This document shows positions 13,945-64,000 of a stretch of 64,000 nucleotides of DNA, one piece after another (within the stretch, counting starts at the first letter, position 1; every line of letters starts with the position of its first letter). A program made the translations under genes and the position numbers. This stretch comes from Alphaproteobacteria bacterium (GTDB lineage Bacteria; Pseudomonadota; Alphaproteobacteria; Micavibrionales; UBA2020). The stretch lies in NCBI GenBank assembly GCA_025934695.1, contig JAICWS010000005.1:146206-210205 (forward strand), given 5' to 3'. The notes beneath the pieces were generated by a model, which was given only the letters and a program-made list of their open reading frames with translations, did no database searches and was not told where the DNA came from.

Positions 13945-14670
13945 TCAATTCCGCATCAGGATAATCGCCATGCATGCGCATAACCCCGCCTTCAATGCGG
14001 TCGATGCCTTCTGATCCTGTTCCAGCCGCGCATAAGCGACCTCAACGGCACTGAGGCCTGCCGCATAGGTGACCTTCTGCCCGGCATAAGAGGCCGTATA
14101 GGCCTCGGTCGTCCGTGCATAGGCGACGGCATGGGTATAGTGCCAGATGAACGCCCGCACGGCAGCCGCGCGTCCCATGGCGGCGGCGGCGGTGAGCGGC
14201 GTCCAGCCGCTGGCGTTCAGCACGTCGACCTTCAGCCCGTGCGCCACGCCGTCCTTCAGCTGCTGTTCGATTTCGTCGTCCGCCGACCATTTCGCCATGT
14301 ACTGCGCGAGCGTCGAGCCATGCGAGCCGGAACGGTCGTTCAGCTTCTTCGTCCCCCTGCCCTCCAGCGCTTCCTGGAGCCAGTGATTGGTCATGAGCCG
14401 CCCTGACACGGGCGACGCGGGCGCAGCGATATTGAAGGACGTGTCACCCTGTGCATCCGGTTGATGCGGATCAGCGCCCTGTTCAAGCAGCAGGCGCACC
14501 GTATCCTCGACGTCCCTGCCCTCGGCTTCCGCGGCGGCGCAATAATGAAGAACGGTCCAGCCCTTCGCATCGGCCACGTTTACATCGCCCGGCGTCGCCG
14601 CCAGCCAGTCGCCGACATGGACGAAACTATGCTTCGCCGCCTGCTCGAGGATGTCGGCGGTAAGCGTCAT
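13945..14670 (-). CDS. ankyrin-repeat protein
   Basis: ANK repeats (GWTVLHYCAAAEA...LLLEQGADPHQPDAQG; GWTPLTAAAAMGRAAAV). The ATG lies 1 nt after the creA-like stop. Confidence 0.8.
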   Translation of the reverse strand: MTLTADILEQAAKHSFVHVGDWLAATPGDVNVADAKGWTVLHYCAAAEAEGRDVEDTVRLLLEQGADPHQPDAQGDTSFNIAAPASPVSGRLMTNHWLQEALEGRGTKKLNDRSGSHGSTLAQYMAKWSADDEIEQQLKDGVAHGLKVDVLNASGWTPLTAAAAMGRAAAVRAFIWHYTHAVAYARTTEAYTASYAGQKVTYAAGLSAVEVAYARLEQDQKASTALKAGLCACMAIILMRN

Positions 14671-14671
14671 C

Positions 14672-15172
14672 TTACTTCAATTCCGGCTTGCCGGGCGCGA
14701 CGCCGTCCCAAGTCATCGGCGTGACCGCGCAGACCGAGGTCATGGGCGAGCCTTCGATGACGCGCTTGGTGCGCACGACGTAGACGAGCGTGTTGTTCGT
14801 CTTATCGTAGAGGCGGTTGATCTTGAGCGATTTGAAGATCAGCGAGCGGCTTTCGTCGAAGACTTCCTCGCCCTCTTCATCCGTGTCGATCTTGCCGGTG
14901 AAGGAGACGGGCCCCGTCTGCACACAGGAGACCGAGCCCAGGCTGGGATCTTCCGCGAGGCCGAGCGCGCCTTTCACGCCGCCCGTCTTGGGCCGTGCGA
15001 TGTAGCAGGTGATGCCCTTGATCTTCGGGTCCTCGAAGGCCGACACAACGATCTTGTGGTTCGGGCCGATCAGCTGGAACGCCGTGCTCACCGCCCCGAT
15101 CTCCCGCGGCGAGTCGGCCAGCGCGGCGGCTGAGAGAAGTGTCAGGGCGAACGCAAAAATTACTCTAAGCAT
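14672..15172 (-). CDS. CreA-family exported protein
   Basis: Signal peptide MLRVIFAFALTLLSAAALA. FQLIGPNHKIVVSAFEDPKIKGITCYIARPKTGG is typical of CreA. The ORF-track N-terminus (..IPAFAGMT..) is a translated repeat element. Confidence 0.8.
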   Translation of the reverse strand: MLRVIFAFALTLLSAAALADSPREIGAVSTAFQLIGPNHKIVVSAFEDPKIKGITCYIARPKTGGVKGALGLAEDPSLGSVSCVQTGPVSFTGKIDTDEEGEEVFDESRSLIFKSLKINRLYDKTNNTLVYVVRTKRVIEGSPMTSVCAVTPMTWDGVAPGKPELK

Positions 15173-15212
15173 ATACGGACTCCAATTGTAGGTGGCCTTC
15201 TCGACCCGGAAA

Positions 15213-15281
15213 GTCATCCCGGCGAAAGCCGGGATCTCCGGATTTATAAACAGCGGAGATGCCGGCTTTCGCCGGGATGAC
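15213..15281. repeat. palindromic hairpin-repeat element (full, two arms)
   Basis: GTCATCCCGGCGAAAGCCGGGATCTCCG / CGGAGATGCCGGCTTTCGCCGGGATGAC around TTTATAAACA. Same family as 9094..9201. Confidence 0.8.
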
Positions 15282-15285
15282 AAGT

Positions 15286-60638: not shown

Positions 60639-60754
60639 CCCCTCTCCCGCCGCAGGGCGGGAGAGGGTTAGGGAGAGGGATTGTCCCGACGGCGACGTCG
60701 AGTGCAGTACAATCCCTCTCCCTCGGCCCTCTCCCAACATTCGTTGGGAGAGGG
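60639..60754. repeat. triple-hairpin CCCTCTCCC/GGGAGAGGG repeat element
   Basis: Hairpins at 60639-60667, 60671-60722 and 60726-60754 all use the same arm sequence. Confidence 0.8.
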
Positions 60755-60809
60755 GGCTACTTCATCCCCGTCTTGTATGCTAGGTTTTCCTTTAATTTAA
60801 AGGACAAAT

Positions 60810-62009
60810 ATGCCTAATCCCATTCTGAAGCACCTGGCGAACGAGACGCAGCAATTGCACGCGCAGGGGCTGTATAAATCCGAACGGGTGATCGTGTCGC
60901 CGCAGCAGGCGGATATCACTGTTCATACGGCAAATGACGATAAAAAAGTCGTCAATCTGTGCGCCAACAATTATCTCGGGCTCGCCAACCATCCGCGCCT
61001 GATCCAGGCGGCGCATGAGGCGCTCGATGAATACGGGCTTGGCCTTGCCTCGGTGCGCTTTATCTGCGGCACGCAGAGCCTGCACAAGCTGCTCGAGGCG
61101 CGCATGAGCGCCTTCCTGAAGACGGAAGACACCATCCTCTACACCTCCTGCTTCGATGCGAACGGCGGGTTGTTCGAAACCATTCTTGGCGAAGAGGATG
61201 CCGTCATTTCCGACGAGCTCAACCACGCCAGCATCATCGACGGCATCCGCCTGTGCAAGGCGCAGCGCTACCGGTACAAGAACAATGACATGTCCGACCT
61301 CGAGGCGAAGCTGAAGGAAGCCTCGAAAGCGCGCTACAAGCTCATCGCGACCGACGGTGTCTTCTCGATGGATGGCATCATCGCGAATCTGCCGGCCATC
61401 TGTGGCCTCGCGGACAAATATGGCGCGCTCGTCATGGTCGACGACAGCCATGCCGTGGGCTTCACCGGCAAGACCGGCGCGGGCACGCCGGAATATTGGG
61501 GGGTGCAGGACCGCGTCGATATCGTCACCGGCACCTTCGGCAAAGCGCTGGGCGGCGCTTCGGGCGGCTATACGTCGGGGCGCAAAGAAATCGTCGAATG
61601 GCTGCGCCAGCGCTCGCGCCCCTACCTGTTCTCGAACACGCTGGCCCCCCCGATCGTGGCGGCTTCGATCGCCGCGCTCGACCTGCTTCACGACGATACT
61701 TCGCGCCTGCAGAAGCTGCGCGACAATGCCGCCTATTTCCGCAAAGGCATGACCGCGCTCGGCTTCGACCTGATCCCCGGCGAGCATCCGATCATCCCCG
61801 TTATGATTTATGACGCGCCGCTGGCCAAGAAAATGGCCGACCTGCTGCTGGACGAAGGCATTTACGTTATCGCCTTCTCGTACCCCGTCGTGCCGCAGGG
61901 ACGCGCGCGCATCCGCACGCAGATGTCGGCCGCGCACGACAAACAACACCTCGATCATGCCATCGCCGCCTTCGAAAAGGTCGGCCGCAAACTGGGAGTC
62001 CTGAAATGA
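60810..62009 (+). CDS. kbl: glycine C-acetyltransferase (2-amino-3-ketobutyrate CoA ligase)
   Basis: [20 protein letters not shown] and the PLP lysine region [10 protein letters not shown]. Confidence 0.95.
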
Positions 62010-62458
62010 GCGACACTTCCACGCCAACGGAACCGAAGCCGGCTGAGGCCGCGCCGTCAGCTGAAAACGCGACGCCCGCCGCCCCCGCGACGGGCGCGCC
62101 GAAACCGCGAAAAGAGTTTCTCGATAATCTTGCCGTGAAATTCCTTTTCTCGCTCGTCGCCTGGGCCGCACCGCTGCCGGTCGCCATCGTCGCGTTGAAG
62201 TGCTGGTTCACCAGCTTCGCGTCCGAAAATCAGAGCGGAACGGATCCTTTCTGGTCGCTGCATCACACCGTGACATCCTTCACCGGCCAGGCGGCGGATT
62301 ACATCCCGCTGGCGGCGCTGCTGCCCTCCGCCGTGCTGCTTTCCATCCTCTACCGCTCGGCGACGGGCCGCTTTCTGTCGATCCTCGTGCTCTGCATCTG
62401 CGCCCTCGCGGAAGTCATCGGCATGAGCAGCTTCTTCGGAGGCCCCGGCGCGCAATGA
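62006..62458 (+). CDS. hypothetical membrane protein wedged between kbl and tdh
   Basis: ATGA overlaps at both ends. Pro/Ala-rich N-terminus and three hydrophobic segments. Confidence 0.5.
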
Positions 62459-63486
62459 AAGCCCTGTGCAAGAAAGAAGCCAAGCCCGGAATATGGATGG
62501 TGAAGGACGCCCCCGTCCCCGAGATTGAGGCGAACGAGGTGCTGATCAAGATCCGCAAGACATCCATCTGCGGCACCGACATCCACATTTATAAATGGGA
62601 CGAATGGTCGCAGAAGAACGTGCCCGTCCCCCTCATCACCGGCCACGAATGGATGGGCGAAGTCGTCAAGACCGGCGCCGCCGTGAAGAACGTCGAGGCC
62701 GGCCAGCGCGTCTCGGGCGAAGGGCACCTGACCTGCGGCGTCTGCCGCAATTGCCGCGCCGGCAAGCAGCACCTCTGCATCCATACCAAAGGGGTCGGTG
62801 TGAATGTGCAGGGCGCTTTCGCCGAATATTTCAAGCTTCCCGCTTCGAACATTTTCAAGCTGCCGGATAACATTTCGGATGATATCGCGGCCTTCTTCGA
62901 CCCGCTCGGGAACGCCGTGCATACGGCGCTGTCTTTCGACCTCGTGGGCGAGGACGTGCTGATCACGGGCGGCGGACCCATCGGCTGCATGGCAGCGGGC
63001 ATCTGCCGCTTCGCCGGCGCGCGGCATATTGTCGTGACCGACGTCAACCCCTACCGCCTGGAGCTCGCGAAGAAAATGGGCGCTTCGCGCGCGGTCGATG
63101 TATCGAAGACGGAATTGCGCGGAGTCATGAAGGAACTCGGCATGTCCGAAGGCTTCGACGTGGGGCTCGAGATGTCGGGCGTCCCTTCCGCCTTCCGCCA
63201 GATGCTCGACCTCATGCGCCACGGCGGCAAGATCGCCATGCTGGGCATCCCGCCCAAGGACATGTCGGTCGACTGGAACAACGTCATCTTCAAGGGACTT
63301 TTCATCAAGGGCATCTACGGCCGCGAGATGTACGAGACCTGGTACAAGATGAAGGCGATGGTGCAATCGGGCCTCGACCTCTCGCCGATGATCACCCACA
63401 GTTTCGCCGCCGAGGACTTCCAGAAGGCCTTCGATACGATGGCTTCGGGCGAGTCTGGCAAAGTCATCCTGAACTGGTCGGCTTAA
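62455..63486 (+). CDS. tdh: L-threonine 3-dehydrogenase
   Basis: [18 protein letters not shown]...[14 protein letters not shown]...GHEWMGEVV. Confidence 0.95.
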
Positions 63487-64000
63487 TCCCCGCGCCGGGC
63501 TTGAGCTTGAGGGGTTTGCGCACAGTGACCTGATGATCCGTGCCGGCGCGCATGTCTCGGCGGGCGAATTCGCCACTGAGCATCACGCCCATGGCCTCGC
63601 GGAATTTCGCGCGCCTGATCGTCTTCGCATGCGCGGCGGCATCCATTCCCGATTTGTCGAAGGGCTTCGCATTGGCGCCCAGAGTTAGCAGCGCCTCGGC
63701 GTTTTCGACGTTGTTTCTCTTGATCGCCGCGATCAGCGGCGTTTCGCCGGCGGCGTTCGGACGGTCGATAAGTCCTTTCGCCGTCAGGAATTCGATGACG
63801 GTCCCGTTATCGGCGCGACTGACAGCATAGTGCATCGCCGTATTTCCCTCGGCGTCGGCGGCGGCGCAGGAAGCGCCGTAGCCAACAAGCGCACCCGCCA
63901 TGACGGCATTGCCTTTGTGCGCGGCCGCCATCAGGGCCGTGCGGCCTTTGGCGTCCCGCGTTTCCAAGGCAGCGCCGCCCTCGATCAGGGCATCTACGAT
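63464..64000 (-). CDS. ankyrin-repeat protein (N-terminus beyond window end)
   Basis: [25 protein letters not shown]; [26 protein letters not shown]. Tail is [21 protein letters not shown]. The frame stays open to position 64000. Confidence 0.8.

Follow-up and report, generated by a model that had tools for sequence, protein, structure and literature searches.

Ankyrin repeat genes in the window

The 64,000-nucleotide stretch of DNA analysed here (contig JAICWS010000005.1 of assembly GCA_025934695.1; hereafter the window) encodes eight small proteins with ankyrin (ANK) repeats, designated ANK1 to ANK8 (Table 1), six of which end in a related C-terminal peptide. All eight open reading frames (ORFs) score above the gathering scores of the Pfam models Ank, Ank_2, or Ank_4, with whole-protein E-values from 1e-9 to 1e-33; the weakest best match is that of ANK6 (1.4e-9) and the strongest that of ANK4 (1.1e-33). 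All eight proteins are members of the ANK repeat superfamily (Pfam Ank, Ank_2, Ank_3, Ank_4, and Ank_5), and a phmmer search with a designed ANK consensus across all six-frame ORFs of the window returned the same eight genes and no others. On a rough gene map, made from the codon-position GC pattern and then annotated with Pfam, the window holds ~64 genes, and ANK genes account for one in eight of them (8/~64).

The background against which this density is judged consists of 1.27 Mb of homologous loci from other alphaproteobacterial genomes (L011–L080; compared loci are cited by L numbers) and 1.02 Mb of further genome and metagenome loci (L083–L163). No ANK ORF was found in these 2.28 Mb of comparable loci of other bacteria by phmmer (E<1e-3), and tblastn with 29 ANK queries (E<1e-4) agrees. 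The crowding of eight ANK genes in 64 kb, which had been reported in the initial annotation of this DNA, is therefore borne out. The coordinates given there need two changes. The start of ANK6 at 40321 fits the alignment with ANK5, but ANK8 is truncated at its 5' end, and for ANK4 the ATG at 26812 is the most likely start. This ATG has GAAGGG 5 nt upstream and gives a protein of 158 aa, as opposed to the 190-aa ORF from the TTG at 26908, and it is consistent with the alignment to the N-terminus of ANK3. An AT-rich, promoter-like stretch in which TTGACA is visible lies upstream of ANK4, around 26900–27010.

The initial annotation had also described a common layout, in which an N-terminal helix ending in a (K/Q)-(Y/H)-(P/G) motif is followed by three or four repeats and a basic linker. 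A common layout is found in six of the eight proteins, with ANK1 and ANK6 outside the scheme. The motif is present in ANK2 to ANK6 (DKHGPG, QKYPGA, SKYEMK, QAYPDE, and GKYGAQ). Because it lies inside the Pfam Ank_2 match, which in ANK3, for example, spans residues 13–107, it is the degenerate first capping repeat and not the end of a separate N-terminal helix. The detectable repeats number two to four per protein, and a basic C-terminal region is seen in ANK2–ANK5, ANK7, and ANK8, but not in ANK1 or ANK6.

The proposed lack of a signal peptide holds for ANK1–ANK7, none of which has a canonical one as judged by a hydropathy heuristic, not SignalP. The maximum 12-residue Kyte-Doolittle hydropathy is 0.26–1.64 in these seven proteins and 1.97–3.07 in six obviously secreted proteins of the window, all of which, including both Sel1-repeat proteins, are cleanly flagged by the heuristic.

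Table 1. Positions in the window of the ANK genes, their C-terminal tails, and selected neighbouring genes
Feature	Position	Strand	Description
ANK1	13945..14670	-	241 aa; Pfam Ank_4 5e-14
ANK2	25120..25806	-	228 aa; Pfam Ank_2 1e-17
ANK3	25803..26339	-	178 aa; Pfam Ank 7e-15
ANK4	26336..26812	-	probably 158 aa; Pfam Ank_2 1e-33
ANK5	39524..40255	+	243 aa; Pfam Ank 9e-18
ANK6	40321..40983	+	220 aa; Pfam Ank_2 1.4e-9
ANK7	54984..55625	-	211-213 aa; Pfam Ank_2 2.5e-24
ANK8	63464..64000	-	at least 178 aa, 5' part cut by window edge; Pfam Ank_2 2e-14
ANK2 degenerate tail	25144-25176	-	VTMKRLKLAHR
ANK3 degenerate tail	25812-25838	-	SAKFRLKGG (AKFRLKGGSA end)
ANK4 degenerate tail	26342-26374	-	VRRRIHLRKAG (RRIHLRKAGS end)
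ANK5 strict tail	40202-40234	+	ITVNSPLQLKR; protein end ...ITVNSPLQLKRPENTAP
ANK7 strict tail	55011-55043	-	IEVKGPLKLKK; protein end ...IEVKGPLKLKKADSPSPSN
ANK8 strict tail	63497-63529	-	11 residues
creA	14672..15283	-	directly upstream of ANK1; Pfam CreA 4e-51
Sel1-repeat protein	22803..23264	-	predicted signal peptide; Pfam Sel1 1e-16; hydropathy 3.07
Second Sel1-repeat protein	24399..25019	-	predicted signal peptide; Pfam Sel1 1.7e-10; immediately downstream of ANK2
392-aa gene	55630..56808	-	upstream of ANK7; operon-like pair with ANK7

A conserved C-terminal tail

The peptide at the C-terminus of ANK2, ANK3, ANK4, ANK5, ANK7, and ANK8 has the consensus [IV]-x-[IVM]-x-x-P-L-x-L-K(K) and is preceded by a charged linker of 30–45 residues. 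The tail is strict in ANK5, ANK7, and ANK8 and degenerate in ANK2, ANK3, and ANK4. It is absent from ANK1, which also has no basic tail and ends in a hydrophobic C-terminus (...LCACMAIILMRN), and from ANK6, which has a Pro/Ala-rich end. The six tail-bearing proteins show the combination proposed as the mark of a family, in which an ANK domain leads into a charged linker and the tail motif lies no more than about 15 residues from the C-terminus.

The tail also closes at least 11 ANK proteins encoded in four other genomes. The strict motif is present in three ANK proteins of L164 and in one each of L165 and L167. In related genomes it is seen on ANK proteins from other subfamilies, with the ends ...AVMKPLQLKK, ...AIFKPLQFRK, and ...TKMKPLRLISRSAALS in the metagenome-assembled genome (MAG) FW300_bin.31, ...FPVQPLKL in OZ257145, and ...PVMKPLKLKPFALPRKPNF in GCA_964575605. 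L081, which comes from another metagenome and has 53% GC, encodes six tandem small ANK proteins that all end in a PKLKLKxGP variant. This array (7044–10609, + strand, of ENA ERZ27254241 k141_1520587) consists of genes for 164–222 aa with overlapping stops and starts, is located between the H+-PPase/smpB/dapA and the oligopeptidase/dnaX genes, and recurs in identical form in L082 (1222–4787).

When a core regular expression for the tail is run over the last 20 residues, the 1,460 six-frame ORFs of the clade loci yield matches in seven ANK proteins and in a single spurious ORF. In the outgroup the expression is matched by 16 of 10,743 ORFs, all of them apparently non-coding frames. The tail is carried by one of 119 generic small ANK matches, and a looser pattern is found in five of the eight ANK proteins of the window as against two of its 56 other proteins. 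At least three ANK subfamilies are spanned by the tail. The codons beneath the motif differ synonymously between copies, which points to selection on the peptide. Literature searches returned no description of the motif. We regard the tail as new, and it appears to tie several ANK subfamilies together.

Two other explanations of the tail were considered and rejected. That it is the mere Shine-Dalgarno region of the next gene is true of the K-x-G-G part of ANK3 and ANK4, but the explanation fails in general because no downstream gene overlaps those of ANK5, ANK7, ANK8, L081_6, or the L164 proteins and because the codons vary synonymously. Encapsulin cargo-loading peptides have the consensus LTVGSL+, and the tail has no G-S-L core. 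Wider searches did not extend the family. A profile of linker and tail gave no match at E<=10 among 5.8 billion proteins, the profile being too short; a metagenome scan with a linker pattern from the tail alignment gave no relative; and in a plasmid collection the ANK matches were limited to the repeats, with none extending to the tail.

Over their last 22 residues, ANK2, ANK3, ANK4, and ANK8 carry a net charge of +5 to +8, and ANK5 and ANK7 one of only +1 to +2. Several housekeeping proteins of the window are equally basic at the C-terminus, and the ANK tails do not have the Arg-rich RxR pattern looked for as a sign of a VirB/D4 signal. Pro/Lys/Ala-rich C-terminal extensions are present on many unrelated proteins of the window (e.g., ...KAAKPEPKAPKI, ...LQKPAPPAP, and ...IPAPSAAPKPPKA; genes at 41084–42208, 23261–24310, 22064–22435, 21548–22045, 55630–56808, and 40321–40983) and are a confounder for any count of “basic tails”. 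In L167, a 171-aa protein without ANK repeats, encoded immediately downstream of clpX (8638–9153, + strand), ends in ...NPVKPLPTIKLRK (...VKPLPTIKLRK), a loose form of the tail.

Organism and lineage

At 90% identity the proteins of the window are singletons. The closest relatives by phosphoglycerate kinase (PGK) are alphaproteobacterial MAGs at 76–85% identity (FW300_bin.31, OZ257145.1, and others), followed by MAGs labelled 'Micavibrio sp.' and 'Bdellovibrionales bacterium' at 70–72% and by Azospirillum at 64%. The best named ClpX matches are 'Micavibrio sp.' (91%) and M. aeruginosavorus (81–82%). In most alphaproteobacteria clpX is found next to clpP and lon; here (11824–13140, + strand) it is away from both and is preceded by hisS, a gene for a 200-aa secreted protein, and sufE. 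The order hisS-x-sufE-clpX is common to M. aeruginosavorus CP066681 and all the related MAGs, which makes it a useful synteny marker. Because of the ClpX and PGK matches and this derived gene order, the organism is placed, on sequence grounds, in a lineage related to Micavibrio.

The relatives are MAGs from groundwater and soil. Cultured Micavibrio are epibiotic predators of Gram-negative bacteria (PMC3189940), but predation is not ascribed to all members of the order (PMC9933672), and lifestyle is not readable from taxonomy alone. A host-associated or predatory lifestyle, as suggested in the initial annotation from the density of ANK genes, is supported insofar as ClpX and gene order place the lineage near a predatory genus; taxonomy by itself does not carry the claim further.

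Paralogy, synteny, and divergence

The ANK proteins were grouped by all-against-all BLASTP and by clustering with orthologues from related loci. ANK2, ANK3, and ANK4 share 33–39% identity over 104–126 aa (ANK3 is 33% identical to ANK4 and 39% to ANK2). ANK5 and ANK6 are tandem paralogues with 32% identity over 211 aa (E 6e-26). The remaining pairs have repeat-level similarity only (23–45 bits). ANK2 and ANK3 are matched by separate orthologues in OZ257145, L002b (35% over 205 aa) and L002a (36% over 170 aa; end ...AKFKLGGRKAAPQ), respectively, and so the ANK4-3-2 array is old. At the position of ANK5 and ANK6 the related MAGs have a single gene, which is closer to ANK6 in L001 (57%) and L002 (39%) and to ANK5 in L004 (40%). 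Since these single-gene relatives resemble either copy, the ANK5/6 duplication is old as well. The ANK6 orthologues in L001 and L002 are also without the tail. No orthologues of ANK7 or ANK8 were found in the loci compared. The eight genes thus represent at least four ANK lineages, two of which were tandemly duplicated long ago, with no sign of a recent burst. The description of the genes as one expanded paralogous family is accurate for the true tandem paralogues ANK2/3/4 and ANK5/6, but not for the set as a whole, given the separate lineages, among them ANK1, and the age of the duplications.

Comparison of syntenic loci reveals a conserved backbone gene order with variable slots that hold the ANK genes. 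An 8-kb island at 21.4–29.4 kb, which contains three small unknown genes, two Sel1 genes, an epimerase gene, ANK2–4, an ASCH gene, and the gene for a 590-aa protein, is absent between carD and the next backbone gene in L007–L010 and partly present in L002 and L003. The segment at 52.9–56.9 kb (two unknown genes, ANK7, and its 392-aa neighbour) is absent from the syntenic L084, as is ANK8; L084 came from a metagenome scan anchored on the rhodanese gene at 58644–59567, in which the best relative had 71% identity and none was close, and which also supplied about 1 Mb of the ANK-free background.

ANK content differs among the relatives. FW300_bin.31 has four ANK genes in 21 kb, three of them in the clpX-creA interval, which holds none in the window, and the other after fdxA; a further 11.6 kb contain one more. 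A JGI contig with a 96% identical ClpX has two in the clpX-creA interval, and OZ257145 has five in about 40 kb, two of which the window lacks. GCA_964575605 has two in 18.5 kb. The 'Micavibrio sp.' MAG has one in 21 kb, the ANK1 orthologue only, and the syntenic 21 kb of M. aeruginosavorus contain none. Because ANK content differs among the homologous slots of relatives, ANK richness is a property of one sub-clade, in which ANK genes continue to be gained and lost at hot spots.

The ANK genes are compositionally native, with third-codon-position GC (GC3) of 0.70–0.85, like their backbone neighbours. They diverge faster than these neighbours. Orthologues of the ANK2–6 type are 35–57% identical, compared with mostly 62–97% for backbone genes; ANK1 is intermediate (65–72%). 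The closest ANK orthologues are 57–72% identical in protein sequence, and synonymous sites are for this reason saturated for the ratio of nonsynonymous to synonymous substitution rates (dN/dS).

Individual genes and their neighbours

ANK1 starts 1 bp past the stop codon of creA on the same strand, and this adjacency recurs in L164 and L166. Orthologues are present in five relatives, with identities of 72% (L164), 71% (L167), 66% (L165), 61% (L166), and 53% (L010). In L167 (GCA_964575605.1; 14355–15080, - strand) the orthologue is located 3 bp downstream of lon and not of creA. Among 150 listed matches from 1.84 billion representatives, full-length matches to ANK1 in a single stretch form about a dozen clusters at 50% identity. 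One related protein, P0245 (528 aa), combines an EpmA/PoxA-like (lysyl-tRNA-synthetase-like) N-terminal part, recognised by eye, with a C-terminal ANK1-family domain 64% identical to ANK1; this may be a genuine fusion, or gene calling may have wrongly joined two adjacent genes. By these comparisons ANK1 belongs to a separate, conserved single-copy family, and it is a clade-specific and probably cytoplasmic protein.

ANK4, ANK3, and ANK2 make up an operon of three genes whose stops and starts overlap; ANK2 comes last, and its start overlaps the stop of ANK3. The second Sel1 gene has its own sigma-70-like site (11/12 match, 25079–25050) and a terminator-like hairpin at 24392–24373. The two Sel1 genes flank the epimerase gene beside the operon and represent a second “eukaryotic-like” repeat family in the island. 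The 590-aa protein of the same island (27653–29425, + strand) has short repeats of the GGY(W/Y)D-x-KGGY type and long Ala/Thr/Pro-rich stretches; Pfam, NCBIfam, and the Protein Data Bank (PDB) gave no match to it.

ANK7 starts 4 bp past the stop of the 392-aa gene. Its only close database match is itself (P0001, 100%), and the next is 46% identical over 31% of the query. In the AlphaFold2 (AF2) model of ANK7 only residues 110–170 (two repeats) are confident; the tail is unstructured and the model is uninformative on it. The product of the 392-aa gene is a candidate partner of ANK7. It has no Pfam or NCBIfam match and no sequence match in the PDB, and a Foldseek search of the PDB with its single-sequence AF2 model (mean pLDDT 55) found nothing at E<=0.001. 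The nearest relatives of ANK8 are ANK proteins of 301–307 aa in L164 and L167, with 27–28% identity and the same tail.

The window has ~60% GC and a chromosomal gene content that includes accA, a J-domain gene, cobS, cobT, hisS, sufE, clpX, a glnA-like gene, fdxA, carD, an rpoH-like sigma factor gene, pgk, ftsY, a miaB-like gene, dapF, smc, and msrA. The cluster of the J-domain gene, cobS, and cobT (4439–8099, + strand) is kept in all related loci. No tRNA genes and no Rfam matches were found in the window, and Pfam detected no integrase, transposase, capsid or other phage, or conjugation genes among the ~64 genes. Three longest-ORF starts overlap their upstream neighbours by 100–300 bp: the nitronate monooxygenase (42320–43705, -) with 43399–44922 (-), the quinone-oxidoreductase-like protein (8002–9081, +) with 6195–8099 (+), and the alcohol dehydrogenase (62200–63486, +) with 62006–62458 (+). 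The true starts of these genes are probably further downstream, their Pfam matches beginning at residues 111, 59, and 111, respectively.

Proposed role of the tail-bearing ANK proteins

The window holds part of a lineage-specific set of small ANK proteins that is old, still changing, and made in the cytoplasm. Six of the eight share one build, consisting of a degenerate capping repeat, two to four fast-diverging repeats, a charged linker of 30–45 residues, and the C-terminal peptide. In such a build the ANK domain may serve as the variable module for different targets and the tail as the constant module that brings each member to one partner. One common partner is expected from the presence of many diverging binding domains with one shared terminal peptide. 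Two kinds of partner fit, namely an export or translocation machine and a cytoplasmic hub such as the ClpX N-domain. We consider the more likely to be an export or translocation machine that needs no N-terminal signal, which would deliver the proteins as effectors, or effector-like proteins, against prey or host cells. ANK1 (creA-linked and without tail) and ANK6 (tail lost) stand outside this scheme.

Several features are compatible with export: the lack of a Sec-type signal peptide by the heuristic, the basic tails (+1 to +8), and the predicted-secreted Sel1 proteins beside ANK2–4. Also in favour are the accessory, rapidly turning-over character of the genes, the kinship of the lineage with a predator, and the statistical link between ANK richness and host association (PMC3932732). 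The signals of VirB/D4 type IV secretion are positively charged C-termini. The genes, their families, positions, and rates of change, and the tail with its confinement to ANK proteins, are observed; a function of the tail in docking or export, and the departure of the proteins from the cell, we infer from sequence. The initial annotation had called ANK proteins rare in free-living bacteria, and this is too strong. At least one is encoded in 56% of bacterial genera (PMC3932732), and our scan of the plasmid collection shows that small ANK genes are common on plasmids of Rhizobium, Agrobacterium, and Azospirillum; only high counts track host association (PMC3932732).

A number of observations weigh against delivery. 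No secretion-system gene is present among the ~64 genes of the window, and cultured M. aeruginosavorus has type I (T1SS) and type II (T2SS) secretion systems but no type III (T3SS) or type IV (T4SS) system (PMC3189940). Across the loci sampled, no protein without ANK repeats has the tail, with the one loose exception beside clpX in L167, and an inherited family feature fits this better than a portable secretion signal of many effectors does. Known Ank effectors are matched in the repeats only, and the tail appears to resemble the XB peptide of the ClpX adaptor SspB at least as much as any secretion signal. ANK2 and ANK3, and likewise ANK5 and ANK6, have been separate genes since before the lineages split, and the long retention of separate genes suggests stable cellular roles. 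On balance, delivery of the tail-bearing proteins as effector-like proteins of a Micavibrio-related bacterium through one common export partner is the reading that we tentatively prefer, as the leading candidate and not as an established role. The narrower proposal that the tail itself is an undescribed translocation or docking signal, marking the ANK repertoire delivered into prey or host cells, is possible but more doubtful.

The alternatives follow in order of decreasing probability. The nearest, although unlikely, is that the tail-bearing proteins work in the cytoplasm with an AAA+ protease, as its adaptors or as substrates under its control, in which case the ANK domain would hold a client and the tail would tether it to the N-domain of ClpX or to Lon. 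The architecture is SspB-like, with a folded domain, a linker of 30–45 residues, and a short basic/hydrophobic C-terminal peptide, and the SspB XB peptide RGGRPALRVVK-COOH (PMC3983244) can be set beside ANK tails such as ...MKPLQLKK-COOH, ...FKPLQFRK-COOH, and ...KPLKLKP. The likeness is, however, one of short, low-information peptides, the hydrophobic spacing differs, and Pfam finds no SspB domain in the ANK proteins. The C-terminal region of FtsZ engages the ClpX N-domain, and the XB peptide inhibits FtsZ degradation (PMC3983244). The ClpX of the window organism retains its zinc-finger N-domain. In relatives several tail-bearing ANK genes adjoin clpX, and in L167 the ANK1 orthologue directly follows lon and the protein without ANK repeats next to clpX has the loose tail, but the ANK genes near clpX are convergent with it and not co-transcribed. 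The absence of signal peptides and the restriction of the tail to one protein family also suit a cytoplasmic adaptor, whereas proteolysis adaptors are normally few and conserved, and so many fast-diverging paralogues that come and go would be unusual among them. Less likely still is a role as inhibitor or immunity proteins against the organism's own or a competitor's lytic enzymes or toxins, with the tandem arrays as immunity arrays. Orphan immunity clusters are arrays of diverged paralogues that vary between strains, and the tandem ANK arrays are likewise diverged and variable; ANK7, moreover, is paired in operon-like fashion with the 392-aa gene. Among predators there is the precedent of Bd3460, which guards Bdellovibrio from its own DD-endopeptidases, but Bd3460 has a signal peptide and an adjoining enzyme gene (PMC4686830), while the ANK proteins of the window have no signal peptide, Pfam recognises no toxin, peptidoglycan hydrolase, or nuclease beside ANK1–6 or ANK8, and the candidate partner of ANK7 has no detectable fold or family. 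Immunity would also leave the tail shared across subfamilies unexplained.

That the cluster is a chance gathering of unrelated, generic ANK proteins, each with some cytoplasmic role of its own, and that the tail is part of a genome-wide habit of Lys/Pro-rich C-termini, is improbable and already disfavoured. It would suit the repeat-level similarity of most ANK pairs, the distinctness of ANK1 as a conserved family, and the Pro/Lys/Ala-rich ends of four window proteins without ANK repeats (41084–42208, 55630–56808, 22064–22435, and 23261–24310). It is at odds with an enrichment that is extreme and clade-wide when set against the ANK-free outgroup loci, with a strict motif that is near-identical across subfamilies and genomes (KPLKLKP, KPLQLKK, GPLKLKK) and essentially confined to ANK C-termini, with the distribution of the loose pattern in the window, and with the synonymous codon variation under the motif. 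Recent horizontal acquisition on a mobile element or prophage, as for the ankyrins of Wolbachia phage WO and the Orientia RAGE, would account for the location of the ANK genes in variable slots between conserved genes, but it is very improbable and largely refuted. Integrase, transposase, phage, conjugation, and tRNA genes are absent from the window, the codon-position GC pattern of the ANK genes is that of the backbone, positional orthologues occur in MAGs whose PGK is only 76–85% identical, and related sequences were absent from a viral contig collection and confined to repeat-level matches on plasmids.

An expansion of ANK genes is a classic genomic sign of bacteria that manipulate other cells, and nearly all work on it concerns pathogens and endosymbionts of eukaryotes. 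The same sign is now seen in uncultured bacteria of soil and groundwater that are related to Micavibrio, whose members prey on other bacteria. ANK expansions as such are well known, and literature searches found no report of ankyrin enrichment in Micavibrio or Micavibrionales; what is new is the lineage and the conserved tail. The shared tag turns the vague observation of “many ANK genes” into a testable one, as a single peptide predicts one partner and can be used to list the repertoire across the clade. Should the partner be an export machine, the tail-bearing proteins would be a new effector family with its own signal in predatory bacteria, and if the tail is indeed a translocation signal, a predatory alphaproteobacterial clade would have evolved an ankyrin effector system of its own, recognisable by one tag. 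If the partner is ClpX or Lon, they would be an unusually large and fast-evolving family of proteolysis adaptors. If it is neither, the expansion would be an ordinary, though dense, lineage-specific expansion of repeat proteins.

Comparison with known systems

The Dot/Icm effectors of Legionella and Coxiella (AnkB, AnkX, LegA) are similar in that several ANK proteins without a Sec signal, with variable binding modules, are encoded per genome. They have a C-terminal translocation signal, and the ANK proteins of the window have a conserved C-terminal peptide. The Dot/Icm signal is Glu-rich and hydrophobic, while the tail in the window is Lys/Leu-rich. The proteins of the window are also much smaller (158–243 aa) and lack additional catalytic or F-box domains. 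The NCBIfam equivalog models T4SS_AnkB to AnkY score 14–64 bits against cut-offs of 450–1400 (T4SS_AnkY, for example, 53 bits against 600), and these matches cover the repeats only and not the full length. No Dot/Icm genes are present among the ~64 genes of the window.

Wolbachia, Orientia, Rickettsia bellii, and Ehrlichia (Ank200) are Rickettsiales, likewise alphaproteobacterial, with many ANK proteins and rapid turnover between strains. Their ANK proteins make up to about 1.9% of all proteins (PMC3932732), and Rickettsiales Ank proteins are secreted by T1SS or T4SS (PMC3417381). The window differs in its GC content of 60%, in its chromosomal, syntenic ANK genes free of mobile elements, and in its relation to a bacterial predator. 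The ANK genes of Rickettsiales are often found on phage or RAGE elements, in the AT-rich, reduced genomes of obligate intracellular bacteria. A location on a phage or mobile element of the Wolbachia WO or Orientia RAGE type was not found for the genes of the window, and the scan of viral contigs was empty. The symbionts of sponges and protists have sets of eukaryotic-like proteins (ELPs) with ANK, Sel1, and tetratricopeptide (TPR) repeats, the enrichment of which is taken as a marker of host interaction; the window, too, has ANK genes beside genes for predicted-secreted Sel1 proteins. To our knowledge, a conserved C-terminal tail has not been reported for the ELPs of these symbionts.

Bd3460 of Bdellovibrio bacteriovorus is a small ANK protein of a predator that acts purely by binding a partner protein (PMC4686830). 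It differs in having a signal peptide, six repeats, and a paired DD-endopeptidase gene, bd3459, and this pairing is absent from epibiotic predators (PMC4686830). In the window the heuristic detects no signal peptide on the ANK proteins, no enzyme gene of this kind adjoins them, and Pfam finds no penicillin-binding protein (PBP), peptidase, or peptidoglycan-hydrolase domain beside any ANK gene. Nor was a recognisable toxin domain, of the kind expected of a polymorphic-toxin/immunity array, found in the window. Taken together, these comparisons place the ANK proteins of the window outside the named effector families, the Bd3460 type, and the phage- or element-borne ANK proteins. Their likeness to the repertoires of Legionella, Rickettsiales, and sponge symbionts is one of number, turnover, and absence of Sec signals.

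The ClpX adaptors of the SspB type have the same build as the tail-bearing ANK proteins. The ANK proteins differ from them in having many paralogues and no SspB fold, their Pfam matches being to ANK models only, and no SspB homologue was found in any of the compared loci. The resemblance is an analogy of mechanism and not homology.

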